Positions 4,187-52,072 of a DNA stretch of 64,000 nt are shown in pieces. A program made the position numbers and the translations under genes. Numbering within the stretch: the stretch's first letter is position 1; the number at the start of each line of letters is the position of its first letter. Source of the stretch: Gammaproteobacteria bacterium (lineage in GTDB: Bacteria > Pseudomonadota > Gammaproteobacteria > UBA4575). The notes below the pieces were generated by a model. It made no database searches, had not been told where the DNA came from, and worked only from the letters and a program-made list of their open reading frames with translations. The stretch lies in contig OZ245760.1 in NCBI GenBank assembly GCA_965227695.1, positions 594,236-658,235 on the forward strand. Direction: 5' to 3'.

Positions 4187-4220
4187 CAGCGAATTAACGC
4201 CATCGAGTGAGAATTAAAAG

Positions 4221-5351
4221 ATGATAGAACCTGATTCCATTCTGGGCATGCTGGGTGGCGGCCAATTAGGGAGAATGTTTGCCTTGGCTGCAGCAGATAT
4301 GGGCTATAAAGTTTGGGTATTGGATCCAAATGAGCATAGTCCGGCAGGGGAGGTTTCAGACCGGCATATAATGGCTGCTTATGATGACTGGTCCGCACTT
4401 GATGAGCTTGGTAAAGCCTGCGCAGTGGTTACGACCGAGTTTGAGAATGTCCCCTCCCGCACGCTGAAATTTCTGCAACAATACTGCGAGGTTTGCCCAG
4501 GGCCTCAAGCTGTTCATATTGCACAAAACCGCATTCGCGAAAAAACTTTTGTCAACGAACTTGGTATTCCCACCTCTAAATTTGTTGCGGTGTATGCCGA
4601 GAATGACGTGAATAATACAGAGCACATGAACTGGCCCTGCATCATGAAAACAGCAGAGTTTGGTTATGATGGTAAGGGACAGCAGGTCGTCGCCAGCGTT
4701 GAGGAAGCGAGACAGGCTTACCGCTATCTAGGTCAGGTACCATGCATACTTGAAGAACGTGTAAAGCTGCAATATGAAGTATCTATTGTACTAGGCAGGA
4801 ACCAGCAAGGTGAGGTCTGTTTTTTTCCAGTTTCGCGTAATACACATAAAAATGGAATATTACATATAAGCTCGGTACCTGCGGATTTGTCAGTCGAATT
4901 GCAGACCGAAGCTTGTGAAATTGCCCAGAAAATTGCAGAAAACCTGGATTATGTCGGGATCATGACAGTTGAGTATTTTGTAGATCAGAATCATCAGTTA
5001 ATGGTCAATGAAATTGCTCCTCGAGTACACAATAGCGGTCATTACACCATGGATGCCTGTCATATCTCACAATTTGAACAGCAAGTGCGCATGATTTGTA
5101 ACTGGTCGCCGGCTGACACCCAGAATTTCTGTGCCGTGGCCATGGTCAATATTCTGGGTGATGCCTGGAAAAATGGTAAATTTCCTGCGGCTAGTTTATT
5201 CAATGATGTCAATGTCAAGGTGCATCTTTATGGTAAAAGAGGTGCGAAGGCCGGACGTAAAATGGGCCACTTCACTGTGACAGCAGATAATGTCAACGAC
5301 GCCGTCAATCATGCTAACCGTGCCTATAAAAGGATGATGCAGGGCTCATAA
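4221..5351 (+). CDS. purK: N5-carboxyaminoimidazole ribonucleotide synthetase
   Basis: 376 aa ATP-grasp protein. Starts ILGMLGGGQLGRM, and sits directly downstream of purE as in the canonical purEK operon. Confidence 0.9.
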   Translation: MIEPDSILGMLGGGQLGRMFALAAADMGYKVWVLDPNEHSPAGEVSDRHIMAAYDDWSALDELGKACAVVTTEFENVPSRTLKFLQQYCEVCPGPQAVHIAQNRIREKTFVNELGIPTSKFVAVYAENDVNNTEHMNWPCIMKTAEFGYDGKGQQVVASVEEARQAYRYLGQVPCILEERVKLQYEVSIVLGRNQQGEVCFFPVSRNTHKNGILHISSVPADLSVELQTEACEIAQKIAENLDYVGIMTVEYFVDQNHQLMVNEIAPRVHNSGHYTMDACHISQFEQQVRMICNWSPADTQNFCAVAMVNILGDAWKNGKFPAASLFNDVNVKVHLYGKRGAKAGRKMGHFTVTADNVNDAVNHANRAYKRMMQGS

Positions 5352-5352
5352 A

Positions 5353-6342
5353 ATGCAGCAGCCATTTAAAGTCTTTCGCATTCATGCCGGTAAAGAATTT
5401 GAGCGCGCCGGTATAGAAACCATGACAATTGATGGTCTGTCGCCTGGCGATGTGGTTATTAAAGTTGAGTATTCCAGTGTCAATTATAAAGATGCACTTG
5501 CAGGCACGGGTACCGGTAAAATTTTGCGCAAATCACCGCTGAATGGGGGAATTGATCTGGCAGGCACCATTGTTTCATCTGAAAGTAAAAAATTCAGTGC
5601 CGGTCAGGAAGTGCTTGTCAATGGTTGCGGGCTCAGTGAAGTACATGATGGAGGCTACAGCCACTATGCAAGAGTCCCGTCTGACTGGGTTATACCTATA
5701 CCTGCAAGGTTGACGACACGCACGTCGATGATTATTGGAACTGCGGGATTCACAGCGGCGCTAGCCATACAGCGGATGCAGGATAATCACCAGTTACCAG
5801 ACAATGGACCCATACTGGTCACGGGTGCCACCGGTGGCGTAGGCAGCTTTTCTGTGCAATTGCTCAGTCAACTGGGTTACCACGTTGTGGCGATGACGCG
5901 TAAGCCACAACAACATGATTTTTTAACTGCACTTGGGGCAAAACAGATCATCTCACCCGGTGAAATTGAGATTGATTCACGTAGCCTGCACAAAGGATGC
6001 TGGGGTGGAGCTATCGATAATCTGGGTGGTGATACGCTGGCATGGCTGACTAAAACGGTGAAGCCATGGGGGAATATTGTGAGTGTCGGAATGGCCGCAG
6101 GTGTAAAAATCGAAACCACTGCAATGCCGTTTATTTTGCGCGGGGTGAGTGTGCTTGGGGTAAGTTCTGCATCATGTCCACAGGTGTTACGCGCAGCTCT
6201 ATGGGGTAAGTTGGGTGATGAATTACTGCCCGGGAACCTGGAAAACATATGCACCGCTGAAGTTGGCCTTGAGACGTTAACTGATGCCTTCAAGAATCTT
6301 TTGCATGGGAATGTGCATGGACGGCAGATTGTGCGTTTATAG
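5353..6342 (+). CDS. YhdH/AcuI-family NADPH-dependent quinone oxidoreductase / acrylyl-CoA reductase (MDR superfamily)
   Basis: 329 aa and aligns along its full length with E. coli YhdH. Shared motifs are VEYSSVNYKDALA, VTGATGGVGS and TTAMPFILRGV. Confidence 0.75.
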   Translation: MQQPFKVFRIHAGKEFERAGIETMTIDGLSPGDVVIKVEYSSVNYKDALAGTGTGKILRKSPLNGGIDLAGTIVSSESKKFSAGQEVLVNGCGLSEVHDGGYSHYARVPSDWVIPIPARLTTRTSMIIGTAGFTAALAIQRMQDNHQLPDNGPILVTGATGGVGSFSVQLLSQLGYHVVAMTRKPQQHDFLTALGAKQIISPGEIEIDSRSLHKGCWGGAIDNLGGDTLAWLTKTVKPWGNIVSVGMAAGVKIETTAMPFILRGVSVLGVSSASCPQVLRAALWGKLGDELLPGNLENICTAEVGLETLTDAFKNLLHGNVHGRQIVRL

Positions 6343-6362
6343 ACTAAATTGGCAGCTACGTA

Positions 6363-7601
6363 CTATCCGTGAGCAAAGAATCGGTATGAGATTAAAATCG
6401 CAGCACTAATTCCGGCAAAATCGGCTAGTAATCCACAAGTCATGGCATATCGTATTTTGGTAATACCTACGGCACCGCAATAGACTGCCAGCACATAAAA
6501 AGTCGTTTCCGTGCTGCCTTGCATGACAGCAGCGACTTTTGCTGCAAAAGAATCCACGCCATGGGTTTGCATGACTTCCAGCATTGCAGCCCGTGCACCG
6601 CTGCCACTGAAAGGCTTCATAATTGCCGTGGGTAATGCTTCAATGAAAGCATTATCGATATTGAAAGTTTGTAATGCGCGACTGACCAGCTCCAGAATCA
6701 CATTAAGTATGCCACTTACTCTAAGTAGTGCGATAGCCAGCAACATGGCAATCAGGTAGGGAATCAGTTTAATTGCAGTGCCAAATCCCTGCTTGGCACC
6801 GACAATAAAAGCTTCATATACATTTATTTTTTTTATCCAGCCGCACACCAGGAATAAGGTAATTGTGGCAAACAGAATAAAGTTGGCAAATAACTGGGCC
6901 TGGTTGCTCATCTGGTCGCTGGGTAACGATAAAAAATACCATGCAAGTACAATCGGGATTGCGCTTAATACAAGCAGATAAGTCAGGACAGTCTTATTGA
7001 ACAGAGGAAGTTTTTGTACGTAGGAAACAGCAAGCAAACCTGTCATGGTTGAGGTAAATGTCGCGAGCAGGATGGGTACAAATACTTCTGTTGGGTGTGC
7101 GGCACCTTGTTGCGCCCGAAATAAAAAAACAGTCACGGGCAATACTGTGACAGAAGAAGTGTTTAATACTAAAAATAGTATTTGTGCGTTGGATAGAACT
7201 GATTTCTGTCTGTTGAGTTTTTGTAAATCATACATCGCTTTTATACCAAAAGGCGTGGCTGCATTATCGAGCCCGAGCGCATTTGCACCCATGTTCATGG
7301 TCATGGAAGTGATGGCCGGGTGATTTCGGGGGACCTCTGGCATGAGCTTGCGGAATAAAGGCGCCAGTATGCGTGCAATAAAATCAGCCAGGCCTGCGCG
7401 TTCGGCAATTTTAAAAAAACCCAGCCAAACCGCCATTAGCCCAATCAGACCCAGCGATATTTCAACGCCGAGTTTTGCAGTCTCGAACAATGCTTCGATG
7501 GCTTGAGTGAAAATCTGCTGATGGCCAAAAACGGATAACTGAATAAAGCAGGCAACAAACGAAAATACAATACAACCGGACCAAAACCAGCCAAGCATCA
7601 C
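6363..7601 (-). CDS. nucleoside-recognition (Gate) domain membrane protein, fused SpmA/SpmB-like
   Basis: 412 aa polytopic membrane protein. The N-terminal segment ...GLIGLMAVWLGFFKIAERAGL...MNMGANALGLDNAATPFG is typical of the nucleoside transporter/FeoB gate family. Confidence 0.55.
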   Translation of the reverse strand: MMLGWFWSGCIVFSFVACFIQLSVFGHQQIFTQAIEALFETAKLGVEISLGLIGLMAVWLGFFKIAERAGLADFIARILAPLFRKLMPEVPRNHPAITSMTMNMGANALGLDNAATPFGIKAMYDLQKLNRQKSVLSNAQILFLVLNTSSVTVLPVTVFLFRAQQGAAHPTEVFVPILLATFTSTMTGLLAVSYVQKLPLFNKTVLTYLLVLSAIPIVLAWYFLSLPSDQMSNQAQLFANFILFATITLFLVCGWIKKINVYEAFIVGAKQGFGTAIKLIPYLIAMLLAIALLRVSGILNVILELVSRALQTFNIDNAFIEALPTAIMKPFSGSGARAAMLEVMQTHGVDSFAAKVAAVMQGSTETTFYVLAVYCGAVGITKIRYAMTCGLLADFAGISAAILISYRFFAHG

Positions 7602-7922: not shown

Positions 7923-8108
7923 AGTATAGTATGTTCACTGTTAAAGGTTGCATTGTACCAGAGCGACAGGCAGAACTTGATCATATAAATCATCAGGATA
8001 TTATGACCTGCATCATGCAAACTGACCAAAGCATTTGTGAAATTGTTAGTTAAATGTACAATGCATACGCCTTTGCTGGAATTATTATATTTACAGGAGT
8101 TTTAAGTT

Positions 8109-8417
8109 ATGAAATCAATTTTATTAGGGTTTGCTGTCAGTATGATGTTCGTATCGGGGATGGCTCATGCGGGTGATATTGAAGCTGGTAAAGCGAAATC
8201 TGCAACATGTGTGGCATGTCATGGCAGCGCGGGCATTAGCCCCACCCCTGTGTGGCCGGACCTTGCGGGTCAAAAAGAGCAATACCTTTTGGCGCAGCTA
8301 AAAGCATTTAAAGACGGGACACGTCAAAACGCTCAAATGGCCCCAATGGTTGCCAATCTCAGCGATGAGGATATGGCAAACCTGGCTGCTTACTATGCCA
8401 GTCTGCCTTGCCAGTAA
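8109..8417 (+). CDS. class I c-type cytochrome (c551/c552-like), monoheme
   Basis: 102 aa with a signal peptide. Has a single CVACHG heme-binding motif and a distal Met in the QMAPMV segment. A good SD (AGGAG) precedes the ATG. Confidence 0.8.
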
Positions 8418-8532
8418 GCGACGGGCGAGAAGAGATGTACCTGGCTGACTTTATGGTCGCCTGAGTTTATTCAGTCGACCATATCTGCCTGCAAACAGGG
8501 TATTATCTGCATATCTATTTAGTCTGGGCTTT

Positions 8533-9015
8533 TTACATGGGCAAGTGTTCAAAACCTGCCGCAGTAATAATTGTGAACAGGCCAATAAGCAGATTTATGC
8601 CGATCAGCTTTCTGATCTGGGCCAGGTTTTTGCCCGCTTCCTGGAAATTTTCCTCGTTTACGGCTCGGCGCAGTCGTTTGAATGGTGCAAAAAAAACATG
8701 CAGGTAAATTAATATCATGATGACACCCAGTGCCTGCATGATATGTACGTACCAGGCGACACCTGCAAATCCATTAAATGCGGAAAAAATCATCCAGTAT
8801 CCGCTGACCGGGAGGATAATCACGGCCAGCCAGACCCAGATGAAAAACCGTGTCAGGGTACGGGACCAAAGGGACAAGCGCACGGCCGGTTCTAATAATT
8901 TTGCTGCGACGGGTCTAAGCGCCATATAGGCAAAGAACATTCCGCCAACCCATACAACAGCTGACAGAACATGCAAAGAAATTGCAATAGAGAAGTAGTA
9001 AGGTTCGATATCCAT
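8533..9015 (-). CDS. conserved 4-TM membrane protein with CopD/HemJ-like His motif (family uncertain)
   Basis: 160 aa. Carries LHVLSAVVWVGGMFF, an H-x-WxGG motif like the CopD/HemJ 4-helix heme-binding family, plus a second His in LHVFF. Convergent with the cytochrome c gene. Confidence 0.45.
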   Translation of the reverse strand: MDIEPYYFSIAISLHVLSAVVWVGGMFFAYMALRPVAAKLLEPAVRLSLWSRTLTRFFIWVWLAVIILPVSGYWMIFSAFNGFAGVAWYVHIMQALGVIMILIYLHVFFAPFKRLRRAVNEENFQEAGKNLAQIRKLIGINLLIGLFTIITAAGFEHLPM

Positions 9016-25317: not shown

Positions 25318-25524
25318 GATATTGGGAAAGCGCACTCCATGAGTACCGTGGCGATGGCCGTTGACCTTGAACCAGAGGTTCAAGTGGGTTCACTGTAAAA
25401 GTCTTAAGGCTCCCTGCTTTTGCAGGTATGCACACTGACTATTAACAAGCAATCCCGAGGTTTGTTAATAGGCTCAAGGGATTTAACGACGTGCTCACGC
25501 ATATCGCAGAGGCGCTGACTCCAA
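25318..25524 (-). ncRNA. ssrS: 6S RNA (SsrS), immediately downstream of zapA; ends approximate
   Basis: The minus-strand transcript contains, in the same order as E. coli 6S, the segments CUCUGCGAUAUG / UCCCUUGAGCC / AGCCUUAAGAC / the hairpin CUUGAACC-ucu-GGUUCAAGG / a 3' end ...GUGCGCUUUCCC. It sits at the conserved zapA-ssrS position. Confidence 0.6.
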
Positions 25525-33604: not shown

Positions 33605-34105
33605 ATGGCAACAATAACATTACAGGGAAACAATATTCAAACAAACGGCAACTTGCCGGCCATCGGAGAGCGCGCGCCAGATTTTACTCTGGTTAACCAG
33701 GATCTTGGAAACGTTGGACTTGATGATTTTGCGGGTAAGAAGAAACTTATAAGCATTGTTCCAAGTCTGGACACACCTGTATGCGCAAGTTCTACCAAAA
33801 AGTTTGCAGCTCTGGCCGCCGAGAGGGAAGACATCATCGTAATAATCGTATCCGCTGATCTGCCATTTGCCATGTCACGCTTTTGTAGTAGCGAAAAAGT
33901 GGAAAATGTTGTGACACTCTCAATGATGCGCAGCCAGAAATTCGCCGAAGATTATGGTGTTTTAATTCAGGATGGACCACTGGCAGGAATTACGGCCCGC
34001 GCAGTTGTCATTCTCGATGCAGATAATAATGTCAAATATACAGAACTTGTTGGTGAAATTGCTGATGAGCCTGATTATGATGCTGCTGTAGACGCACTGG
34101 CTTAG
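33605..34105 (+). CDS. tpx: thiol peroxidase (atypical 2-Cys peroxiredoxin)
   Basis: 166 aa. Has the peroxidatic Cys in [11 protein letters not shown] and the resolving Cys downstream, matching E. coli Tpx. Confidence 0.9.
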
Positions 34106-36174
34106 CTGCGAGGCGGGTCTTTTAATACTTGTGTCAGGTTCTCCAGTGATTCTATTGGAGCCTGACACTCCAACCCATGGCACAAGAAAGCACGCGTTGC
34201 ACCCGCCGCTGAATTTTTGATGGCGAGGCTTTCTGGCAGATTTTGTGCATCATCCGGAATTGAAAACACCATGCAGTCCGGCTGATATTGTTTTTGACAA
34301 GTTCTTTGCCAACTCTCTATTGTGGGCTGTATACCGCGTATAATGATTATTGTCGGGGGTTCTATAAGTTCCTCGTAACATCGTAAAAGCGACCCATATG
34401 CCATTGGATTATTGTTTATCTGCTGCCCTGCATTATTAATGGTGCGCTCTGCGGCATCAATGTATCGAGTCTCTGAAAGCAGGTAACCCAAGCGCAGCAG
34501 ACTATAAGCTGCCACGCCATTGCCTGAGGGAGTGGCTTCATCTGAACTGATTTTGGGTCGCTGAATGAGATTTTCGTGATCATTGGATGTAAAATAAAAC
34601 CCACCGTATTGTTGATCTTCAAAATGTGCCAGTAATGTATTGGCTATTTCAATTGCAAAAAGCAGATAACTGCTCTGCCATTGTGTCTGCAGGTATTCCA
34701 GTAAAGCATCCAGTAAAAACGCATAATCATCAAGATAGGCATTCAAATGAGCTTTACCATCTTTGTAGCTTGCATAGAGACGACCCTGATCTGTGATCAT
34801 GTTGCGTCTGATAAATTCAAGTGCATCAAGTGCTGAACGGCTATACTCATCTTTGTCAAATACCCGGCTGGCGATCGACATGGACTTGATTACTAATGCA
34901 TTCCAGCCTGTGAGTATTTTATCATCCCGGTCGGGTGGGGTATTGCTAGATCTATATGTAAATAACTTGTCACGTGCGCGTTGCCAGGTTTCATTGCATG
35001 TTGCGATATCAATGCAATGCTGTCTTGAATATTCATCGAAATCCATCCATTCGTTTAAATGGTATTTATCCTCGAAGTTAGGGCCACGCTCCAGGCCAAA
35101 ACGTTGATTTACAAGGTCCAGTTCTTTTTTGTCGAGTAATGTCTTTATTTGTTCCATGTCCCAGGTATAGTACTTTCCTTCTACACCATCAAAATCAGCA
35201 TCTAAAGAAGAAAAGTAACCGCCTTCTGGTGCTTGCATCTCACGTATGATCCATTCTGCTGTATCCAGCGCGGTTGATTTGAAGCGTTCCTGGCGCGAGG
35301 CAAGATAAGCCTGGGTATAGATGCTGAGTAAGAGGCCGTTGTCATAAAGCATTTTTTCAAAATGCGGTATCATCCAGTAATCATCTACTGAGTAACGATA
35401 AAAACCGCCGCTGACGTGATCAAACAATCCTCCCGCGGCCATTTTTTCCAATGTAAAAAACAGTAAATGAAATGTAATGTTGTCTTCAATTCCATGTTGT
35501 TGAGATCGATAGTAGTCTCGAAGCAGTAAATCGAGATTACCGGGATGAGGGAATTTTGGTGCCTTGCCAAATCCGCCATGCTGTCTGTCGAAAACTTCCA
35601 TTAACTGATTTTTTGCCCGAAGCAGAATGTTATTTTCAAGTGTTACCGGTTCACCTGAGGATTGGTAAATGGCGTTTAACTGATTCTGCAGGGACTGGTT
35701 CTGCTCTTGGACCTGTTCGGGTTTTGTGTAATAAATTTCAGCGATATATTTAAGGAGATCCTTGAAAGCGGGTAATCCATGGCGTGCTTTTTTCGGGAAA
35801 TAAGTGCCAGCAAAGAATGGAATATGGTCAGCAGGGGTCAGAAACATGGTTAGCGGCCACCCTCCACTGCGTTGCGTCAGCACAATAAAGGAAGTCTGGT
35901 ATATCTTGTCAATATCGGGTCGTTCTTCCCGGTCAACTTTGATGTTGATAAATAAGTCATTCATAATAGAGGCTGTCTGGGCGTCCTCGAATGATTCATG
36001 TGCCATTACGTGGCACCAGTGGCAGGCAGAGTAACCAACAGATAACAATATTGGCTTGTTTTCACGTAATGCCCGGTTCAGCGCCTGTTCTCCCCATGGA
36101 TACCATTCCACGGGATTCTGAGCATGCTGTAATAAGTATGGACTGGTTTCGTGGCAGAGGTAGTTGGCTGACAT
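34102..36174 (-). CDS. thioredoxin-domain protein of the YyaL/DUF255 (SSP411-like) family
   Basis: 690 aa. The N-terminal thioredoxin-like domain has a CHWC motif ([18 protein letters not shown]), followed by a long (alpha/alpha)6-like region. Confidence 0.75.
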
Positions 36175-38397: not shown

Positions 38398-39219
38398 TTA
38401 TTTTTGTTTGTTGCATTGAATCTGATGGATAGTCACCGGGCTGACATCAATCCTTGCAGCAGTAAGTTCATTACCCCAGATGCAGCCAGTATCGAGCGCT
38501 AGAAGATTACTTTTATTTACCAGCCCAAGTGCAGACCAGTGACCAAAGATAATGTTGATATCTGCAGAATTTCTGGGTAGCTCAAACCAGGCATGTAAAT
38601 GCTTTGGCTGCATCCCTAATGGACCTTTATAGTCAAAATTCATCCGACCCTGCTGATCACACATGCGCAGCCTGGTAAATGCATTGAGTATGATTCGACT
38701 CCTGTCCCTGCCGCGGAGATTTTTATCCCATTTGTCAGGTTGGTTACCGTAGGCATATTTTAAAAAATCAGCATACTGATCTGATCGCAGTTGTTGTTCT
38801 ACCTCGCTGGCACATTCAAGTGCAGTTTTTAAATCCCACTCGGGTAAAAAGCCGGCATGTACCATCACCCAGTTCAGTTCATGGCAAGCATGCAGCAGTG
38901 GTTGTTGACGAAGCCAGAAGACAATGTCTTCGGCCTGCTTACTATTGAGTATCTGATTGAGGGAGCTATTGGGTTTGCAGTTTTTTATGCCCGCATGACA
39001 GGCGATGAGGTGAATGTCATGATTGCCCAGCACGCATTTAACATTCTGTTGGGGTAACGCGCGAATAAATTCAATTGTATCCAGTGATTGCGGTCCACGA
39101 TTAACAAGGTCGCCTACAAACCAGAGTTGGTCCAGCTGGGGGCTGAACTCAATTTCAGATAGTAGCTGCTCGAGTTCGCTAAAGCACCCCTGAAGATCGC
39201 CAATTGCATATATGGCCAT
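38398..39219 (-). CDS. apaH: bis(5'-nucleosyl)-tetraphosphatase, symmetrical
   Basis: 273 aa. Has the metallophosphatase motifs GDLQGC...GDLVNRGP...GNHD. Confidence 0.9.
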   Translation of the reverse strand: MAIYAIGDLQGCFSELEQLLSEIEFSPQLDQLWFVGDLVNRGPQSLDTIEFIRALPQQNVKCVLGNHDIHLIACHAGIKNCKPNSSLNQILNSKQAEDIVFWLRQQPLLHACHELNWVMVHAGFLPEWDLKTALECASEVEQQLRSDQYADFLKYAYGNQPDKWDKNLRGRDRSRIILNAFTRLRMCDQQGRMNFDYKGPLGMQPKHLHAWFELPRNSADINIIFGHWSALGLVNKSNLLALDTGCIWGNELTAARIDVSPVTIHQIQCNKQK

Positions 39220-39243: not shown

Positions 39244-39627
39244 CTAATGAAGCACGCGGGGAGCAGACAGGGTGAAAAGTTCTATCTCTGCATCAAATTC
39301 AGTACCATCATCAGCCAGCATTTGATAACTTCCATGCATGGTTCCAACAGGCGTCTCCAGCATGGTACCGCTTGTATACTGAAACCCTTCACCTGGTTTC
39401 AAGTGCGGTTGTTCGCCCACCACGCCATCGCCTTTGACCTCCTGGGTTTTGCCGTTCGAATCTGTGATGATCCAGTGCCTTGTCAGTAACTGTGCCGATA
39501 CATCACCATTATTTTGTATAGTGACTGTATAAGCAAAAACGTATCGATCATCATCTGAACTGGATTGCGACTCAAGGTAGGTCGTATCTACGCTGACGGT
39601 AATATTATAAGGGGTTATTTCTTCCAT
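39244..39627 (-). CDS. apaG: ApaG (DUF525) protein
   Basis: 127 aa. ...YVFAYTVTIQN...LLTRHWIITD... is the ApaG pattern. Conserved position between rsmA and apaH. Confidence 0.85.
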   Translation of the reverse strand: MEEITPYNITVSVDTTYLESQSSSDDDRYVFAYTVTIQNNGDVSAQLLTRHWIITDSNGKTQEVKGDGVVGEQPHLKPGEGFQYTSGTMLETPVGTMHGSYQMLADDGTEFDAEIELFTLSAPRVLH

Positions 39628-39684: not shown

Positions 39685-40461
39685 TCAGATTTTGCCCTCT
39701 TGCATGAGCTTTGCCAGATTAATTAAATTATCCAGTGTCAGCTGCTGAGGCCGGCAGGAAGGGTCGATATTGGCTTTGCTAATGACGGATGATTCTAGAA
39801 TATTTTTAAGATTGTTACGCAAGGTTTTTCTTGGTTGAGCAAAACATGCTTTGACTATCCGTCTAAAATGGTTTTCCAATAACGGAGGAACAAGTGGTTG
39901 ATTTCGCGGTGTCAGCCTGATGAAAGCAGAATCAACTTTTGGCGGGGGAGAAAAACATTCCGGGGCAACGTCAATTAACTTTTGGGCCTGGCAACTTGCC
40001 TGAACCATCACCGACAGGCGGCCATAGTTACGTTCGCCGGTAGTGGCGCATATTCTATTGACTACCTCTTTTTGCAGCATAAAGTGCATATCACGAATAT
40101 TGTCAAGATGATCAAGAAGCAGGAAGATGATTGGCGTTGATATATTATAAGGCAGGTTGCCTACAATGCGCCTTGGGGTGCGGGTATCTGAGAAGTCAAA
40201 TTTCAGTACATCCAAAGCGTGAATCGTTAGCTTATTCGCCTGTTTATCAAGAATCTGCAGATGCCGGATTAAATCTCTATCCAGCTCTATCACTTCCATA
40301 TGCTCGACAATATCCAGAATTGGTCTGGTTAATGCACCGGTTCCAGGGCCGATTTCCAGTATATTATCTGATGGCAACGGGGAGATCGCCCGGACCAGGG
40401 ATTGGATAATATCCGCATCCTCTAAAAAGTGCTGGCCAAATCGTTTACGTGCGCGGTGCAT
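39685..40461 (-). CDS. rsmA: 16S rRNA (adenine1518/1519-N6)-dimethyltransferase
   Basis: 258 aa. Has the SAM-binding motif LEIGPGTGALT, and the NLPYNISTPI motif is typical of KsgA. Confidence 0.9.
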   Translation of the reverse strand: MHRARKRFGQHFLEDADIIQSLVRAISPLPSDNILEIGPGTGALTRPILDIVEHMEVIELDRDLIRHLQILDKQANKLTIHALDVLKFDFSDTRTPRRIVGNLPYNISTPIIFLLLDHLDNIRDMHFMLQKEVVNRICATTGERNYGRLSVMVQASCQAQKLIDVAPECFSPPPKVDSAFIRLTPRNQPLVPPLLENHFRRIVKACFAQPRKTLRNNLKNILESSVISKANIDPSCRPQQLTLDNLINLAKLMQEGKI

Positions 40462-40722
40462 GGGGGTTATTCAGTAGTAGCTAAAGTCACTGTGGTCCGG
40501 ATTGTAACTCGTGATTGAGAAATAATAATCCGGCCATTATATGGCGAGACCATCATTGATGTGCATAATGTCAATTGGACATTGGTTCAGGACGTGTGAA
40601 ATAACCGTTTATGCCAACAGAGCACTCCGGGGCCGACAAAATTTGATTTAACCAGGGCAATCCTGTGGAGCTCCGCCCTTGTATAAAATTTAACAGGGCC
40701 AAGAAAACATACCCCGGCTTTT

Positions 40723-41244
40723 TCACATCCGGTCTTCGCTATTCGAAGCAAGCGTGGATGACATGCTGTCACCACTGACGGGGATTGCATAAGTTCCGAT
40801 TAGGGTGTATTCGGGACTGTCCTCTATCTTTGTTAGCGCAAGTGTGATCACCAGCCGGGGATGATACAACAGCAACATCTCATGAGGTTTCAGTGACTCT
40901 GAAGTGGTTGAGTCGGTAATTAGCGCAAGGTCGATACCGAGTCCATTAGAAATCTGGACCGAGAGTTCCCGCAGTACGGTAAGCGGAGTCGCATTATCGC
41001 TGATTGTTAACTTTCCAAGGTAGGTGATGCCCACTGCCTCAGTATTTTTCAGATTTTCAATGGAGCGCAGCTTTTCCTTGAGTGGACGGATTGTGAGTGT
41101 TGCCTGCTGTTGATTTAATAGCTGAAACTCCGAAGTCGAACTCAGCGTTATTGATCTTGCGTCCAATGCGCTGCTTTCTGCTGACACGCCAGTTATTGGC
41201 AGACAGAGTAAGGTGATCACGAGTAAAAACGCAGGCTTTGACAT
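40723..41244 (-). CDS. hypothetical secreted protein (signal peptide; Ser/Thr/Leu-rich)
   Basis: The ATG at 41244 lies one nt after the stop of the upstream PNPOx-like gene (TGAtATG). The N-terminus MSKPAFLLVITLLCLPITGVSA-ESS is a signal peptide. An alternative ATG at 41268 is possible. No family recognised. Confidence 0.4.
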   Translation of the reverse strand: MSKPAFLLVITLLCLPITGVSAESSALDARSITLSSTSEFQLLNQQQATLTIRPLKEKLRSIENLKNTEAVGITYLGKLTISDNATPLTVLRELSVQISNGLGIDLALITDSTTSESLKPHEMLLLYHPRLVITLALTKIEDSPEYTLIGTYAIPVSGDSMSSTLASNSEDRM

Positions 41245-41245
41245 A

Positions 41246-41629
41246 TCAAAATACTTTTTCAGCGCCATAATAGATAGACTCAATGTTAAGAACGACTGCT
41301 CCGATACCGGCAAACTTGGGGTCCAGCCACGCTTTCATATCCTGATATATTTCGCCTTCGGTATGGTATTCCAGACTACCCTTGATCTGGTAGGCTTCTC
41401 TTTCAGGCGCGATCATTAATAATGCTCCACGGCTTTGAGACTTGATGTTATTGAGTGTTTTGTGGAAAAAATTATTGGCTATCAGTATTCTTCTTTCATC
41501 CAGCATCTTGACGCATAGTACCCAAACTGAATTTGGCTCGCCTTTCGGACTCACCGTTGTGAGAATCATGCGTGGTTCTTTATTGTTCCATGCATCCAGG
41601 AAAGCCTGTGGTAATGTACTCATTATCAT
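41246..41629 (-). CDS. pyridoxamine 5'-phosphate oxidase-like FMN-binding split-barrel protein
   Basis: 127 aa. ...RMILTTVSPKGEPNSVWV...LIANNFFHKTLNNI... matches the PNPOx-like small family. Confidence 0.55.
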   Translation of the reverse strand: MIMSTLPQAFLDAWNNKEPRMILTTVSPKGEPNSVWVLCVKMLDERRILIANNFFHKTLNNIKSQSRGALLMIAPEREAYQIKGSLEYHTEGEIYQDMKAWLDPKFAGIGAVVLNIESIYYGAEKVF

Positions 41630-41633
41630 GTCC

Positions 41634-42215
41634 TTAATTTTCTATTGTTCGGGAAACCGAAAAAGCGCCGCGAATTTCACCTGTCTGATAACCGGTGGCG
41701 AGATCATTTGGGTATAATTTTTCCAGTCTTCCCAATAACACGGGGTCCATGTTATTTTCATCGCCATGACAGGCCAAGCATAAACCCTGCACGGGGATTG
41801 CGCGCATCATTCTCAGGGTGGTGCCGCTCTCTGATTTGAAAGATTCCATATGAGACAATTCAGAGGCCGGGGTCCCTTTTGCAAGTTTATCCTCGAATGA
41901 CTCTAGCACCTGTCGTTCCCAGGCGTCAGGTATATTGTTCGGATTGCGCAGTTTTAAGCTTGTACGTTTGATTGAAATATCATCACTGGCATTAAGGTCA
42001 TGCGTGATTTGAGGTGCTTTCAACTGGCATATTTCAACCGCGGCGACTGGACCGCCGGATTGCATGGCGGCACCAAGCTCCTGTTTTAGACTGCTGGCCA
42101 GAGTCTTGATCTTTACGGTGGCGTCCTGGCGGAATGTTTCAATGGCCTGTTGTGTATCTTGTGCACAAGCGACCAACGCAGTGAAAAATGTCAATAATAA
42201 AACGAGTACTTTCAT
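41634..42215 (-). CDS. periplasmic DUF3365 / Tll0287-like domain protein with a c-type heme-binding motif
   Basis: 193 aa. Has a signal peptide (MKVLVLLLTFFTALVACA-QD) and a single CLACHG (CxxCH) motif. Its size and layout are consistent with Tll0287-like PAS-fold heme proteins. Confidence 0.5.
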   Translation of the reverse strand: MKVLVLLLTFFTALVACAQDTQQAIETFRQDATVKIKTLASSLKQELGAAMQSGGPVAAVEICQLKAPQITHDLNASDDISIKRTSLKLRNPNNIPDAWERQVLESFEDKLAKGTPASELSHMESFKSESGTTLRMMRAIPVQGLCLACHGDENNMDPVLLGRLEKLYPNDLATGYQTGEIRGAFSVSRTIEN

Positions 42216-42224
42216 GGTATTGCT

Positions 42225-43190
42225 CTAAACATGTCGGGTTGAAGTTAGTTGCTCTCTGGCCAGCATGATAGCGGATATTAAACTTCCTGCGTCTGTTTTT
42301 CCGCTGCCGGCGAGATCGAGCGCGGTACCGTGATCAACAGATGTGCGTATGAAGGGTAATCCCAGTGTTGTGTTAACCGCGTTTCCAAACCCTATATGCT
42401 TCAGGGTTGGCAGTCCCTGGTCATGGTACATGGCTAAAACCACATCCACAGATTGTAACTGCTTTGGTGTGAAAATTGTATCTGCCGGATATGGGCCTGA
42501 GACGTTGATGCCATTGCTTTTTAACTGTGTCAGGGTGGGTATTATTATCTCTATCTCTTCACGCCCGAGATGACCCTGTTCGCCAGCGTGCGGGTTCAGG
42601 CCGCATACACCAATCCTGGGATCTTGAATGCCGAATTTATTTTTAAGATCAGTATGCAGGATGCGGATGACTTGTAATAACAATTGCGGAGTTATGCTGG
42701 ATGGCACATCGGATAATGGCAGGTGCGTGGTCGCCAGTGCAACCCTGACATGATCTGCGACCAGCATCATGACAACGTCTGATCTGGCCTCCTTTGCAAG
42801 ATATTCAGTATGTCCGGTAAAGGCGATACCTGCGTCGTTAATTACTCCCTTGTGCAATGGGGCAGTAACGATCGCGGAATATTCCCGTTGCCGAACCCCA
42901 CGCAATGCTTCATCGAGACAGCTCAAAACATAGGTGGCATTGGCAGGCTGGAGTTGTCCGCATTCTACGGGTTTGTTAACTGGGATATGTTTCACACGCA
43001 CTTGATTGTTCTGTGCTGGCTGGTCTTCACAAATATCAATATTAATTTCTAATATTGCAGCACGGCGAGCCAGCTCGTGTTTATCTGCAATCACAATGCA
43101 ATCATTGAGCTGATCGAGAGACTGCAAAATAATATCAAAACCGATACCTGCTGGTTCTCCGGCGGTAATGGCGAGAGGAGCTGTACTCAT
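42225..43190 (-). CDS. pdxA: 4-hydroxythreonine-4-phosphate dehydrogenase
   Basis: 321 aa. PLAITAGEPAGIG...GLNPHAGE...HGTALD are PdxA motifs. Follows surA as in E. coli. Confidence 0.9.
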   Translation of the reverse strand: MSTAPLAITAGEPAGIGFDIILQSLDQLNDCIVIADKHELARRAAILEINIDICEDQPAQNNQVRVKHIPVNKPVECGQLQPANATYVLSCLDEALRGVRQREYSAIVTAPLHKGVINDAGIAFTGHTEYLAKEARSDVVMMLVADHVRVALATTHLPLSDVPSSITPQLLLQVIRILHTDLKNKFGIQDPRIGVCGLNPHAGEQGHLGREEIEIIIPTLTQLKSNGINVSGPYPADTIFTPKQLQSVDVVLAMYHDQGLPTLKHIGFGNAVNTTLGLPFIRTSVDHGTALDLAGSGKTDAGSLISAIMLAREQLTSTRHV

Positions 43191-43218: not shown

Positions 43219-44544
43219 TCAGTTTCCGTAGACAAGTCTGTTTTCAACATAGCTTTCATCACGTAATTGGCGCAGCCATAATTCCTTTTCTTCGCTGATT
43301 TTTCTTTGGCGGATAAACTCACGAGCCTGGTTTCGGCGTGCTTCTTCAGAGTTGTCATGTTTTCTTTTGTCTAATACCTGCATGATATGCCAGCCAAAAC
43401 GGCTTTTAAATGGTTCACTGATTTCCTGAACAGGTATACTTTCAGCAACTTCACGAAAGGCTGGCGCAAATACATTGGGAGCCAGCCATCCCAGTTCTCC
43501 GCCTTTTGAAGCGCTGCCAGGATCTTCAGAGTGCGCACGCGCCAGTTCAGAGAAGTCTTCGCCGTTGATGATGCGTGAGCGAAGTGCCCGCAAATCTCTT
43601 TGTACCTCCTTATCGCCGCGCACTGCATTGGTCTTAATTAAGATATGTCGTGCCAGGACCTGTTCTACCATGACACGATCCTGCCCACGCATGTCAAGAA
43701 TGCGAAAAATATGGAATCCGCTATTGCTGCGCAGAGGCTTGCTAATATCGCCTGGTCCCATGTTGTTTAATTGGCGGGAAAACACTCCAGGTAACTGATC
43801 TTTGTTGCGCCAGCCGAGATCGCCACCCTCGAGGGCATCTTGTGCCTGGGAGTGCGCTATTGCCAGCTGTGTGAAGCTCTCATTTCCCTGAGTGGCGCGT
43901 TGATGCAAGGCGTCGATTTCGTTGCGGCCTTTTTCGATATCCTGCGGCGTTGGGTCCTGCGGCAGTTGTATGAGGATATGGGCGATACGATATTCTGTGT
44001 TTGCATTTAATTCGTCTGCCTGATTAGCCAGCAGGTCCTCTACTTCCTTGGGAGAGACTTGTACATTCGACTCCACGGCCCTGCGCTGAACTTGCGCGAT
44101 AGTCATTTCAGTTCTTACCTGATTGCGAAATGCTACGTAGTCTATGCCTTGCTGAAGCAGTGCGCTTCGAAACTCGTCGAGACTTAAGCGATTGCGCTCG
44201 GCAAGATTTCGCATTGCCTGATCAAGGGAAATATCATCGATAGTGATTCCCCTGCGTTCTCCCCAGGCGACCTGTAGCTTTTCAATGATAATACGCTGTA
44301 ACACCTGCTCTGCCAGAGTTGCCTCGTCAGGCAGACTGGCCTGATCGCCCGCCTGGGCCTTGATGACATTAATGCGTTCCAGTAACTCGCTTTCTGTGAT
44401 GACATCATTCTCAACCACCGCAACAATGCGATCAACCAGCAGGCTCGATTGCGCCTGGTTAATGAATGTCAGCGACGTGTAACAAATGCAGACAATGAAT
44501 ATTAGTAAACTAGTATTTGAATGTGTTGCGATCTTCATAACCAC
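43219..44544 (-). CDS. surA: periplasmic chaperone / peptidyl-prolyl isomerase SurA
   Basis: 441 aa. A signal peptide and N-terminal chaperone domain are followed by two parvulin domains (GGDLGW..., GGELGW...). The start may be 6 nt downstream, at MKIA. Confidence 0.9.
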   Translation of the reverse strand: MVMKIATHSNTSLLIFIVCICYTSLTFINQAQSSLLVDRIVAVVENDVITESELLERINVIKAQAGDQASLPDEATLAEQVLQRIIIEKLQVAWGERRGITIDDISLDQAMRNLAERNRLSLDEFRSALLQQGIDYVAFRNQVRTEMTIAQVQRRAVESNVQVSPKEVEDLLANQADELNANTEYRIAHILIQLPQDPTPQDIEKGRNEIDALHQRATQGNESFTQLAIAHSQAQDALEGGDLGWRNKDQLPGVFSRQLNNMGPGDISKPLRSNSGFHIFRILDMRGQDRVMVEQVLARHILIKTNAVRGDKEVQRDLRALRSRIINGEDFSELARAHSEDPGSASKGGELGWLAPNVFAPAFREVAESIPVQEISEPFKSRFGWHIMQVLDKRKHDNSEEARRNQAREFIRQRKISEEKELWLRQLRDESYVENRLVYGN

Positions 44545-46666
44545 GAATATTGCGTTGTAATTGTTCTGTTAGCGGTGAACCCAGAGAAGTTAACCCTTTG
44601 AGTGTTAACTGTATTTCAATACTATTGTTGTAATCCCCTTCACTGTCATTGGTGAAGCGGCGTGCCGCGAAGCTCAGTTTCCAGCAGCATGTGTCGTATT
44701 CTAGCCCGCCAAGCAAGTCCAGGTCACGACTGTCTTTTAAATCATAATTCCAGCGGCCGACTGCTCTCCACTGCTGATTTATCGGATATATGAACGAGAT
44801 ATCCGACTGTGAGAAATCATTTCGTCGAAACCTATGGCCAATATTAAATATAAAGTTATTACTACTACGATATTGCAGGCGGGCATTAGTTCGATTGAAT
44901 TCATCTTCCTGCGGATCCCATAAAGCCGCGCCGATAGCATGCCATCGATCTGTCAGGCCAATGCGTAATTCACCAGCAATGTTGGATGACTGATCATCGT
45001 CATCGCCACTATTATTCAGCGACACTTTACGGTCTTCGAAATAATAAATCTGTCCAATGCTTGCACGTGCAATCTCATCGCCATTATTCTGATTGATTAA
45101 ACGGCTGGTGATTGCTGCCGTCAGCTGGTTGGCATCTGACACTCTGTCGGCACTGGTAAAGCGATCAGTTCGGAATAACTGGGCAAAACTGAACTCATAT
45201 TCCCCGGTGTCAAATAATGGAATATCCGTGTGGTTTCTCTCCGGTGTATATAAATAGAATAATCGTGGCTCGAGGGTGTGTCTAAATCGACTGGACAAAG
45301 CCTCGCGTTCAAATATGAGTCCGCTATCGACGGAGAAACTTGGCAATGTTCTGCTGGGATCATTATTATTATCTGAACTGGATAAGTCGTATGAAGTATG
45401 CATAAGCCGCATCGAGGGAGTAATAAAATATCCCGGCGCGATCCAGGGGCGAGATATCTCGCCAAATAAATGTAAACGATTACCATCAATTCGGTCGTCA
45501 TGCTCAAAAGCAACCCACTCACTTTCTGAATTGAATTCCAGGCCAAGTGGTAAATTACTGAATGAATTATTGATGAGGATCTGGGGCAATCTCTTAAATG
45601 GGTCATTAACGGGTAAGCTCTCGTCGTCCACTATTTGAAATTGCTGGGCGCGAAACAGCGCATTCCAGTGGCCACCGAAATGTCTGTTTGCATATCGCAG
45701 GTCTCCCCTTCGTTCCAGTCTTCGGGTGCTTGAGACACCAATAGAGTCGCCCAGGTCTTCAAAGTAGTCGTCATCAGATGCATTGTTATAAATCAAATCC
45801 CCATAAAAGTGGTCAGTAAAACTGTGTTCATGTGCAATTGAGACAAGATATCTGTCATCATCAAACTCACGATCATCAAGGAACTGAAAGTTGACTTCAC
45901 CGCGATTTGTATCATTAAGATAGCGCCCATTAGCTCCCAGCAGGACGCCGCGTTTGTCGAGGTAGCGTGGAACAAACAGGGCATCCCGATGTGGTGCAAT
46001 ATTCCAGTAAAAAGGTGTTTCCAGATCGATGCCGGAACTGCTGCTGCGGCCAAAAACGGGTGCGAGAAAACCGGTTTTTCTCTCGTTGTTAATTGGGAAG
46101 CTCATCCAGGGTGAGTAGAAGAATGGCACGCCTTTGAATTTGGCTGTGACATTACGGGCGGTGCCGACGCCCTTTTTTCTGTCGAGAGTGGCTTTACTGG
46201 CTTTGAGTTCCCAGTCTCTGTCTTCAAAGTCACAGGTCGAATATGTCGTTTTATCCAGTTTGACGACGTCCTGGGATACCCGCTCTACCTGGTCCGCCGT
46301 GCCGCTACCATGGGATGGGTGGTACCAGTAACGCACATTTTCAGCTTTGGCGGTTTCATCTTCTGTCCAGTAGTCAACACGCTCGGCGGTAATATCAAGA
46401 TCCGGGTCGCGCAGAAGTACATTACCTGTTGCAATGGCTTTTTTGTCTTTCTCTGAGTACTGTACGCGATCTGCATGCACGTCCTGGTCAATTCGAAAAA
46501 GATGAACACGCTGGCTATCATTGCGCGGGTCTTCGGCTGTTGAAGGATCATTGCCAGGTTCATACTGGCTGGGTTGCCTTGTGCATTGGCGCCATTGCGA
46601 ATCATCCGCAAGCAGGCTGGTGCTTAGGACGCATATCAGGATAATAATGTGTGCGCGCAGGTGCAT
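44510..46666 (-). CDS. lptD: LPS-assembly outer membrane protein LptD
   Basis: 718 aa with a signal peptide. Has an N-terminal OstA-like domain and a large C-terminal beta-barrel rich in aromatic/Asx residues. Sits upstream of surA as in E. coli. Confidence 0.85.
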   Translation of the reverse strand: MHLRAHIIILICVLSTSLLADDSQWRQCTRQPSQYEPGNDPSTAEDPRNDSQRVHLFRIDQDVHADRVQYSEKDKKAIATGNVLLRDPDLDITAERVDYWTEDETAKAENVRYWYHPSHGSGTADQVERVSQDVVKLDKTTYSTCDFEDRDWELKASKATLDRKKGVGTARNVTAKFKGVPFFYSPWMSFPINNERKTGFLAPVFGRSSSSGIDLETPFYWNIAPHRDALFVPRYLDKRGVLLGANGRYLNDTNRGEVNFQFLDDREFDDDRYLVSIAHEHSFTDHFYGDLIYNNASDDDYFEDLGDSIGVSSTRRLERRGDLRYANRHFGGHWNALFRAQQFQIVDDESLPVNDPFKRLPQILINNSFSNLPLGLEFNSESEWVAFEHDDRIDGNRLHLFGEISRPWIAPGYFITPSMRLMHTSYDLSSSDNNNDPSRTLPSFSVDSGLIFEREALSSRFRHTLEPRLFYLYTPERNHTDIPLFDTGEYEFSFAQLFRTDRFTSADRVSDANQLTAAITSRLINQNNGDEIARASIGQIYYFEDRKVSLNNSGDDDDQSSNIAGELRIGLTDRWHAIGAALWDPQEDEFNRTNARLQYRSSNNFIFNIGHRFRRNDFSQSDISFIYPINQQWRAVGRWNYDLKDSRDLDLLGGLEYDTCCWKLSFAARRFTNDSEGDYNNSIEIQLTLKGLTSLGSPLTEQLQRNIRGYEDRNTFKY

Positions 46667-51163: not shown

Positions 51164-51229
51164 ATCGGGTTCTTTAATTTCCTGGCCAAACTGCTACTAT
51201 TGCCCGGCAAAGAATTATTAGGTGCAACA

Positions 51230-52072
51230 ATGAAACTTACCTCGAATGAACTTTACGCACTTCCCAATAAAGCGATTACATTGCTGGGAATGTCTGGTGT
51301 TGGTAAAACCACACTGGCAAATAAACTGGATAGGTCAAAGTGGTTTCATTACTCTGGTGATTATCGTATCGGCACAAAATATCTTGAGGAGCCAATACTT
51401 GACAATATCAAGGAGAAAGCGATGAAAATTGACTTTCTTGCCGATCTTCTGCGTACTGATTCAATATATATCTGCAGTAATATTACAGTCAATAATCTTG
51501 ATCCTGTCTCTACATTCCTGGGTAAAGTAGGCAACGAAGAACTGGGAGGATTGGAGTTGAGTGAGTTTAAACGTCGCCAGTTTCTGCATCGCCAGGCTGA
51601 AATATTTGCTATGCTTGATGTGCCTGAGTTTATCGGTAAAGCAAAAAATATCTATGGTTATCCCAATTTCCTCAATGATGCAGGTGGCAGCTTGTGTGAG
51701 TTGGATGACCCCGAGGTATTTGAAGTACTGTCCAAGCACACTATTATTTTATATATACGTGCGGATAGTGAACATGAACAGACCTTGTGTGAAAGAGCGC
51801 TAAAACACCCCAAGCCGCTTTATTTTCAGGAGGAGTTTCTTGATAAACATCTGGCGATGTTCCTGGAAGAAAAAAACATCAGTTCTGTGAACGAGATTGT
51901 GCCGGATGAATTTAGCGGCTGGGTATTTCCCAAATTATTAGAGCATCGTAAACCAATGTATGAACTAATCGCAGAAAGATATGGGTACACTGTCAGCTTG
52001 CAGGATGTCCAGCAAGTACGTGATGAAAACGACTTTATTGAGTTGGTCGGTGAAGCGATAGATCGCAGTTAA
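51230..52072 (+). CDS. P-loop NTPase with shikimate-kinase/NMP-kinase-like motifs and an approximately 100-aa insertion; function unknown
   Basis: Has Walker A LLGMSGVGKTT, a GGS box (NDAGGSL), and a KHPKPLYF segment that resembles the shikimate kinase RPLL region. It is about 280 aa, whereas canonical shikimate kinase is about 170 aa. Start is the ATG at 51230 (good SD), or alternatively the TTG at 51200. Confidence 0.5.
   Translation: MKLTSNELYALPNKAITLLGMSGVGKTTLANKLDRSKWFHYSGDYRIGTKYLEEPILDNIKEKAMKIDFLADLLRTDSIYICSNITVNNLDPVSTFLGKVGNEELGGLELSEFKRRQFLHRQAEIFAMLDVPEFIGKAKNIYGYPNFLNDAGGSLCELDDPEVFEVLSKHTIILYIRADSEHEQTLCERALKHPKPLYFQEEFLDKHLAMFLEEKNISSVNEIVPDEFSGWVFPKLLEHRKPMYELIAERYGYTVSLQDVQQVRDENDFIELVGEAIDRS

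Follow-up and report, generated by a model that had tools for sequence, protein, structure and literature searches.

Three additional genes between pdxA and rsmA

A 64-kb stretch of contig OZ245760.1 from a gammaproteobacterium (hereafter the window, by which we mean this whole stretch) carries the lptD-surA-pdxA-rsmA-apaG-apaH cluster, which is among the most conserved gene strings in Proteobacteria. In the window, three open reading frames (ORFs), here called ORF-A, ORF-B and ORF-C, stand between pdxA and rsmA. Comparison with related loci showed that the three have separate histories at this one junction and were gained stepwise. The reading that we favor, and consider fairly probable, is that they are three functional genes forming a lineage-specific, stepwise extension of the cluster.

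Read along the minus strand, lptD-surA-pdxA are followed by ORF-A, ORF-B, ORF-C, a 261-bp spacer and finally rsmA-apaG-apaH (38.4–46.7 kb; Table 1). The six named genes, confirmed by Pfam, lie on one strand in the E. coli order, and the three ORFs are their sole interruption. Packing is tight: 9 nt separate pdxA from ORF-A, 4 or 10 nt separate ORF-A from ORF-B, and a single nucleotide separates ORF-B from ORF-C. An alternative ATG of ORF-C, at 41268, would instead create a 23-nt overlap with ORF-B.

Table 1. Features of the lptD-apaH cluster, with positions in the window
Feature	Position	Strand	Description
lptD	44510..46666	-	718 aa; first gene of the cluster; related loci 74–85% identical, with PF04453 LptD
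surA	43219..44544	-	441 aa; periplasmic chaperone/peptidyl-prolyl isomerase; Pfam SurA_N and two Rotamase domains
pdxA	42225..43190	-	321 aa; 4-hydroxythreonine-4-phosphate dehydrogenase; PF04166, E = 2e-111
ORF-A	41634..42215	-	193 aa; stand-alone sCache_heme protein (Tll0287-like/DUF3365); PF11845
ORF-B	41246..41629	-	minimal PNPOx-fold protein; PF01243; likely start ATG 41623 (125 aa)
ORF-C	40723..41244	-	173 aa; predicted exported alpha/beta protein; small family without a name
Spacer upstream of rsmA	40462..40722	-	261 nt, non-conserved
Candidate sigma-70-type promoter of rsmA-apaG-apaH	40536..40565	-	TGCACA-18-TATAAT; consensus match
rsmA/ksgA	39685..40461	-	258 aa; 16S rRNA dimethyladenosine transferase; PF00398, E = 3e-69
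apaG	39244..39627	-	127 aa; PF04379, E = 4e-39
apaH	38398..39219	-	273 aa; diadenosine tetraphosphatase-type metallophosphatase; PF00149, E = 6e-16; synteny kept in relatives

Stepwise gain at the pdxA–rsmA junction

When the GTDB species representatives were searched with the PdxA sequence of the window, we retrieved the locus L001 and 79 others. Among these representatives the trio was found only in L001, a metagenome-assembled genome of an uncultured gammaproteobacterium whose PdxA is 75% identical to that of the window, and it occupied the same place there; the other 79 loci (PdxA 51–58% identical) contained none of the three ORFs. Of the 65 other proteobacterial loci with both pdxA and rsmA, 59 had a gap of at most 200 bp between the two. 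A preliminary description of this DNA had placed the trio between pdxA and rsmA, tightly spaced and followed by a 261-bp gap, and had judged the arrangement atypical; its coordinates and spacing are correct, and the distances in other Proteobacteria bear out the judgment.

Further loci came from contigs that encode ORF-A or ORF-B homologues, and a metagenome scan with an ORF-B profile, comprising 80 loci, extended the picture to four configurations, nearly always at the pdxA–rsmA junction. The complete trio is present in the same synteny in L081, L082, L083 and L087, as in L001; in the former four, the shared neighborhood includes the resistance-nodulation-division (RND) efflux genes, lptD through apaH, folA-thyA-lgt and a gene for a DsbH-like protein. 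Two loci with this synteny (L084/L085) have ORF-A alone. ORF-A is missing from L088/L089 and L090, where ORF-B is accompanied by a diverged ORF-C (34–37% identity, E = 1e-25 to 1e-27); further loci with this pair and without ORF-A include L106, L110 and L112, among others. Finally, L127/L128 have ORF-B alone. The distance from pdxA to ORF-B was 24 nt in L088, 13 nt in L090 and, by the coordinates of high-scoring segment pairs, ~50 nt in L127.

ORF-B homologues of at least 56% identity adjoined genes of the pdxA/rsmA cluster in all fetched loci but L105, L108 and L119, and relatives of 41–48% identity were found in unrelated contexts. Across the carriers, ORF-B was 56–83% identical to its counterpart in the window, versus 45–75% for PdxA. 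Across deep divergence, nearly every ORF-C that was encountered followed ORF-B at the pdxA–rsmA junction. An ORF-A homologue in L086 lies at another site, beside a GGDEF gene. The carriers are an uncultured, mostly marine clade of gammaproteobacteria.

In a neighbor-joining tree built from concatenated SurA, PdxA, RsmA, ApaG and ApaH (1420 columns, 200 bootstraps), all carriers were monophyletic in 195 of the 200 replicates, while the clade carrying ORF-B and ORF-C and the clade bearing ORF-A were each recovered in 200/200. The ORF-B-only locus L127 was basal among carriers, and the two loci with ORF-A alone fell inside the ORF-A-bearing clade. The parsimonious order of gain implied by this tree is ORF-B, then ORF-C, then ORF-A (between pdxA and ORF-B), with one later loss of ORF-B and ORF-C; that loss is parsimonious under either placement of L084/L085. 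The preliminary description had supposed one insertion of three genes, a view that does not agree with the occurrence of ORF-B alone, ORF-B with ORF-C, and ORF-A alone at the same junction, nor with the order of gain read from the tree.

The ratio of nonsynonymous to synonymous substitution rates (dN/dS), calculated for the pair L109/L120, which is unsaturated (dS ~0.5), was 0.13 for ORF-A, 0.17 for ORF-B and 0.08 for ORF-C, with values of 0.05–0.12 for the flanking genes. All three ORFs are hence under purifying selection comparable to that acting on their flanks. Homologues numbered 1579 for ORF-A, 121 for ORF-B and, among 5.8 billion cluster representatives, 93 for ORF-C, the latter all in this lineage. 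Because of these counts and of the dN/dS ratios, ORF-A, ORF-B and ORF-C are real functional genes and not chance ORFs. We also considered recent horizontal transfer and rejected it, given that the GC content of the three genes (0.43–0.49) is like that of the flanks and that they are present throughout the clade.

Other genes have settled at the same junction, which is not, as had been assumed, an unusual place for accessory genes. L027 (Dokdonella) has an opposite-strand gene for a membrane protein, EamA-like by eye, between pdxA and rsmA (7990–8907), and L072 (Rhodocyclales) a same-strand gene whose product looks patatin-like (7959–8903). An opposite-strand oxidoreductase gene, by eye of the Gfo/Idh/MocA type, follows pdxA in L064 (7973–8926) and L073 (8527–9462), where rsmA is missing downstream. 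Some relatives within the clade hold a small gene that we call orfD (82–86 aa; motif IEPIFI.HFK..HG.SP...ELKQHL) between ORF-C and rsmA: it is found in L081 (7601–7849), L087 (7702–7962), L099 (3834–4085) and L096 (1888–2073), is frameshifted in L103 (3716–3962) and is absent from the window. In L099, two more ORFs (60 and 302 aa; 4200–5309) lie ahead of rsmA, and the C-terminal 66 residues of the longer one match positions 2921–3118 of L110, a locus of the clade with ORF-B and ORF-C, at 50% identity, which suggests further turnover at the same junction.

Such unrelated inserts in other lineages, the variable extra genes and pseudogenized orfD of the relatives and a spacer that is not conserved are all consistent with pure hitch-hiking, in which the three genes would be unrelated to each other and to the operon, and the junction, upstream of an internal promoter, would simply be a neutral and well-expressed site. 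That ORF-A homologues are found elsewhere in other bacteria, as in L086, fits the same idea. However, neutrally placed genes are expected to relocate or decay, whereas ORF-B, down to 56% identity, has stayed beside genes of this cluster in all but the three fetched loci named above, and ORF-C, which is under strong constraint, almost always follows it despite the deep divergence of the carriers. We regard pure hitch-hiking as quite unlikely.

The three products

ORF-A matched the Tll0287-like profile PF11845 over positions 2–142 of 144 (E = 6e-26; 92 bits, cutoff 24.1) and, in the Protein Data Bank (PDB), Tll0287 itself (5B82; E = 3e-10), with the CLACHG segments aligned. The single CxxCH motif of ORF-A (C146-L-A-C149-H150) corresponds in this alignment to the CLACH of Tll0287. 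Cys63, Cys146, Cys149 and His150 were invariant in 121 of 121 sequences (ORF-A and its 120 best homologues), and Cys63, one residue off the position expected by offset from Tll0287, is a candidate distal ligand. The protein has one domain only, with no transmembrane or output domain, and a copy identical to it at 100% (P0001) is present in the protein collection searched. By eye, its N-terminus comprises a hydrophobic signal with a lipobox (L-V-A-C17) or, alternatively, a signal peptidase I site (ACA↓Q). ORF-A is probably a membrane-anchored lipoprotein in the periplasm, because the lipobox Cys is kept in its ~36 closest homologues; the N-terminus of the more distant ones shows an AxA cleavage site or an anchor that looks uncleaved. 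An extracytoplasmic location is needed for the attachment of heme c.

The family to which ORF-A belongs has been renamed sCache_heme, and about half of its members are stand-alone proteins; the CXXCH motif is the defining feature, conserved in at least 99% of members (Deshpande et al. 2026, bioRxiv 10.64898/2026.02.01.703092). According to the same preprint, the one stand-alone Cys/His protein that was tested behaved like a redox protein, with weak NO (nitric oxide) binding and slow autoxidation, whereas a member fused to a signaling (HAMP) domain showed tight NO binding of the kind seen in known NO sensors. The distal axial Cys of the Cys/His subclass, termed 'Cluster 1', is exemplified there by the Cys of Tll0287 and by C59 in P. 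putida.

ORF-A resembles Tll0287 (from Thermosynechococcus) and the P. putida 'Target 1' in being a single-domain protein of ~190 aa with a signal peptide and one CXXCH, and it has an invariant upstream Cys that is a candidate counterpart of the one in the Cys/His-ligated members. Unlike those two proteins, it belongs to a subclade with a lipobox Cys, so that it is probably membrane-anchored, and its gene is located within the lptD-apaH cluster (the preprint is silent on gene neighborhoods). By analogy, we infer that ORF-A is a periplasmic c-type heme protein with Cys/His ligation. Having no output domain, it would be placed in the stand-alone, redox-type class, and it is more probably a redox protein of low potential than a sensor that transduces a signal.

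These features bear directly on the earlier proposal that the trio is a single heme-sensor or redox module, inserted as a unit, which makes envelope biogenesis and rRNA maturation respond to a redox signal or to one related to pyridoxal 5'-phosphate (PLP). The genes are indeed tightly packed on the operon strand and stably kept as a trio in many genomes, two of the three products are predicted to be extracytoplasmic, like LptD and SurA, and sCache_heme domains can sense when fused to output domains. Nevertheless, the three genes do not always occur together at this junction, and their gains were separated in time. A sensor role for ORF-A is itself unlikely, as the protein stands alone, carries an invariant candidate for the distal Cys and with it a likely Cys/His signature, as in the subclass found to be redox-like, and has no output domain. 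No regulator or transducer is encoded nearby in the window or in L081–L083, and ORF-B is not PdxH-like. Overall, we consider a single coupled module very unlikely.

A stand-alone sCache_heme gene in a more distant genome (L086, 4709–8542) adjoins a MASE6-GGDEF gene, a Pro/Ala-rich ORF of 195 aa and an amine oxidase gene. This context is suggestive of signaling more than that of the window is.

ORF-B matched the PNPOx_N profile PF01243 (E = 7e-14; 52.6 bits, cutoff 28.1). Its homologues support the second ATG as the start (125 aa, as opposed to 127 aa from the first), with AAGGA located 7 nt upstream, and no signal peptide was found in the protein. The AlphaFold2 (AF2) model had a predicted local distance difference test score (pLDDT) of 93 and yielded 70 PDB matches at E ≤ 1e-3 in Foldseek, those listed being split-barrel proteins. 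Upon superposition, template modeling (TM) scores were 0.84 with HupZ, 0.74 with the flavin mononucleotide (FMN)-binding protein of Desulfovibrio (FMN-bp) and 0.55–0.61 with E. coli PdxH. HupZ was also the closest solved relative by sequence (E = 1e-5 with a single sequence, 4e-7 with a profile), followed by FMN-binding proteins of the COG3576 type. In the HMMER alignment, W34, H54-K55-T56 and N59 of ORF-B correspond to W32, H52-K53-T54 and N57 of D. vulgaris FMN-bp, whereas HupZ is without these residues. W34, K55, T56 and N59 are invariant or nearly so in the ORF-B family alignment, and their counterparts in FMN-bp (W32, K53, T54 and N57) are presumably flavin-site residues.

Taken with the model, these matches point to a split-barrel protein of the HupZ/FMN-bp type that would bind FMN in the cytoplasm, and not to a pyridoxine 5'-phosphate (PNP) oxidase. 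ORF-B is similar to HupZ (from Group A Streptococcus) and D. vulgaris FMN-bp in consisting of one split-barrel domain of ~120–130 aa. It is only 21–23% identical to them, however, and neither of the two is encoded beside pdxA or paired with an exported partner.

PdxH has a two-part architecture of ~215 aa, with a C-terminal substrate-binding region. We rejected the identification of ORF-B as PdxH, since it scored 14.3 bits against TIGR00558 (cutoff 180) and 15.2 bits against NF004231 (cutoff 129), has 125 aa without the C-terminal half of PdxH, and superposes on the E. coli enzyme with the low TM scores given above. The thresholds of the F420-class NCBIfam models were also far from reached. 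As for the heme oxygenases of the HugZ/HutZ type, ORF-B scored 13.2 bits against the HutZ model TIGR04110 (cutoff 225), and the match to the HutZ structure 3tgv had an E-value of only 0.07. Moreover, ORF-B ends straight after the last barrel strand, and the C-terminal loop with the axial His that characterizes HugZ/HutZ is absent; this identification was rejected on both the family profile and the loop.

The preliminary description had connected the PNPOx fold with PLP through the neighboring pdxA, and a more specific version of the idea has ORF-B as a flavoenzyme that belongs to the PLP pathway or is linked to PdxA (such as a non-canonical oxidase of PNP or pyridoxamine 5'-phosphate (PMP), or a redox partner) and was recruited beside pdxA, with ORF-C and ORF-A as later, unrelated additions. 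ORF-B was gained first, it directly follows pdxA in the lineages that have ORF-B alone or with ORF-C, it is more conserved than PdxA itself, and it varies little or not at all at the FMN-site residues that it has in common with FMN-bp. On the other hand, in the trio clade ORF-A stands between ORF-B and pdxA, and the relatives of 41–48% identity are in unrelated contexts. The 14.3 bits against a pdxH equivalog cutoff of 180, the absence of a PdxH-type C-terminal domain from a protein of 125 aa and the better superposition on HupZ than on PdxH also make the link weak. In addition, a minimal homologue, Pden_1323, is devoid of PNP/PMP oxidase activity (PMC8131568). On balance, recruitment to the PLP pathway is an unlikely, though conceivable, origin for ORF-B.

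The similarity to HupZ could also mean that ORF-B is a c-type-heme (hemopeptide) oxygenase, like HupZ and Pden_1323, or a heme chaperone, and that it is tied to ORF-A. HupZ is the closest solved relative in both sequence and structure and resembles Pden_1323, a c-type heme oxygenase (PMC8131568), and the gene for a heme-c protein adjoins that of ORF-B. But ORF-B is older than ORF-A at this locus, and a whole clade has ORF-B without ORF-A. ORF-B also has in common with the flavin-binding FMN-bp the W/HKT/N residues that HupZ is without, its score against the HutZ model is far below the cutoff, and it is predicted to be cytoplasmic, whereas ORF-A would be periplasmic. Furthermore, the heme activity of HupZ has been attributed to its His tag (PMC7865249). 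We find a heme-handling role of this kind most doubtful.

Some homologues of ORF-B are found in other settings. L105 and L108 carry one (61–62% identity; 5001–5378 and flanks) outside the pdxA cluster, where by eye the neighboring genes look to be of the formyltransferase/formylmethanofuran-dehydrogenase type (Fhc-like). The distant relatives (41–48% identity) in L134, L144, L146, L155 and L162 (~5000–7400), from sediment and other metagenomes, have a recurring neighborhood, in which we recognized by eye a protein with a CTYDCIYC motif (radical S-adenosylmethionine-like), a Thi4-like flavin adenine dinucleotide (FAD) protein and a protein with a metallo-beta-lactamase fold.

ORF-C had no match in Pfam or NCBIfam. 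It bears a signal peptide (...LPITGVSA↓ES), and its Ser+Thr content is 23.7%, with 14.5% for ORF-A and 9.4% for ORF-B. A profile search of 1.84 billion cluster representatives returned 19 matches only, the weakest of which were without Pfam domains or belonged to an unrelated RTX protein of 2520 aa; one distant homologue is a lipoprotein in an unrelated context. The family alignment shows a conserved core of ~120 residues with an invariant DSxTS...P-H-E...LLLYHP block, and the core of the AF2 model has a pLDDT of about 90 or above. Foldseek matches were weak (E ≥ 7e-3, TM 0.28–0.35) and included DcrB, LpqN, MTC28, Mog1p, PsbP and EagT6/SciW, whereas a profile search of PDB sequences gave only a chance match to FliC (E = 0.26).

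From these data, ORF-C appears to be a periplasmic alpha/beta protein of a new, lineage-restricted family. Its assignment to the Mog1/PsbP-like fold class is tentative: ORF-C is similar to DcrB, LpqN, MTC28 and EagT6/SciW in being exported, alpha/beta and of ~150 aa, and these proteins were its best, albeit weak, structural matches, but no relation to Mog1/PsbP-like proteins was found at the sequence level. ORF-C is possibly translationally coupled to ORF-B. An upstream start ('MALKKYF') was examined and set aside as undecisive. The homologues do conserve M-[AV]-Q-K-K-[FY] at this point, which cannot decide the start because it is an alternate frame of the conserved ORF-B C-terminus, YGAEKV. 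As regards families, searches with hidden Markov models agreed with the earlier assignments for all three products, namely, a Tll0287/DUF3365 protein with CxxCH, a PNPOx fold and an exported protein outside Pfam and NCBIfam.

Expression and meaning of the extended cluster

In E. coli, at least eight promoters serve the lptD-surA-pdxA-rsmA-apaGH cluster, a complex operon (PMC10495129), and sites of the RpoE type lie ahead of lptD and surA in Shewanella (PMC4336711). The cluster in the window has the same six genes as that of E. coli, in the same order and on the same strand, and differs from it by the three extra genes and the 261-nt spacer between pdxA and rsmA. At the nucleotide level this spacer resembles none of the related loci, and it contains no remnant of orfD; in relatives its length varies from ~45 nt (L083) to ~1.6 kb (L099), and some spacers hold extra genes. 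Its predicted RNA fold is not unusual (z = −1.4), and no Rfam element was found in the region.

The preliminary description had suggested looking in this gap for an internal promoter of rsmA, and a candidate is present there. The sequence TGCACA-18-TATAAT (read from 40565 to 40536) ties for the best score, 10 out of 12, among promoter-like sites in the segment 38300–46900. In a scan of 8.6 kb, no terminator-like site was detected on the minus strand, either in the spacer or between the genes.

Given the common strand, gaps of 1–10 nt and no terminator-like site, ORF-A, ORF-B and ORF-C could be expressed by read-through from surA-pdxA. rsmA-apaG-apaH would still be served by a promoter of its own within the variable spacer, much as the E. 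coli operon has several promoters. In that case, the pdxA–rsmA junction would be a tolerant landing site, where accessory genes accumulate.

A few features of the cluster and its surroundings may be added. At its 3' end, lptD extends 35 nt past the GTG called as the start of surA (44510–44544), and gene calls in relatives overlap in a similar way (e.g., L081 3689–3717). Near the cluster, beyond lgt-thyA-folA, the minus strand encodes a thioredoxin-domain protein of 690 aa (34102–36174), whose homologues in related loci match PF03190 (DsbH-type); this neighborhood is kept in L081–L085 and L088. On the plus strand, an ORF of 290 aa with no Pfam match at E 1e-5 (51200–52072) lies directly downstream of the RND pump gene. 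Rfam matched the window only once, at a 6S RNA (RF00013, 73.7 bits; 25329–25515, minus strand), and no tRNA genes were found in the 64 kb.

Several observations weigh against the reading that we favor, a stepwise extension by three functional genes, or against parts of it. The nesting of L084/L085 in the trio clade was recovered in only 125 of 200 bootstrap replicates. Co-transcription and the internal promoter are argued from spacing and a consensus match, and the 24 promoter-like sites in the scanned segment compare with ~15 in shuffled sequences. In addition, searches for sigma-E-type promoter patterns ahead of lptD and surA were negative. For ORF-A, the HMMER alignment with 5B82 begins at residue 71, so that the match of Cys63 to the axial Cys is not residue-level. 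For ORF-C, the fold assignment is weak (Foldseek E 7e-3, TM ~0.3). Finally, a tolerant landing site leaves the long retention of ORF-B and ORF-C unexplained, as ORF-B is still at least 56% identical where PdxA is down to 45%. Such long retention at one site hints at a functional tie to the operon.

We also entertained the possibility that ORF-B and ORF-C, joined by ORF-A in the younger clade, are an unrecognized, coherent accessory system of the lptD-surA-pdxA operon. Such a system might consist of a cytoplasmic flavoprotein and an exported partner acting in the envelope, to which the younger clade would have added, for redox purposes in the periplasm, a heme lipoprotein with Cys/His ligation. 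We consider it a rather unlikely case; if it were true, ORF-C would represent an uncharacterized periplasmic family kept at one locus throughout the existence of the clade.

Regarding the preliminary description as a whole, its basic observation stands, together with the family calls, the packing and the candidate promoter, but a single sensor module wired into the operon is not supported by the distribution of the genes or by the tree. The stepwise extension that we favor is new as a variant of a known operon; it combines a domain family of recent description with a known fold and a small new family. A junction that gains genes stepwise and holds them for long under strong selection is a clean natural example of operon growth. 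The locus also provides a context for an sCache_heme protein of the stand-alone kind, a probable lipoprotein encoded beside genes of outer-membrane biogenesis, and for ORF-C, a member of a tiny exported family paired with a HupZ/FMN-bp-like flavoprotein. The ORF-B/ORF-C pair is the most attractive point left. If a role related to the envelope or to PLP proved true for it, the pair would add a lineage-specific element to a well-studied pathway; otherwise, the cluster would be an ordinary variant of gene order, specific to its lineage.

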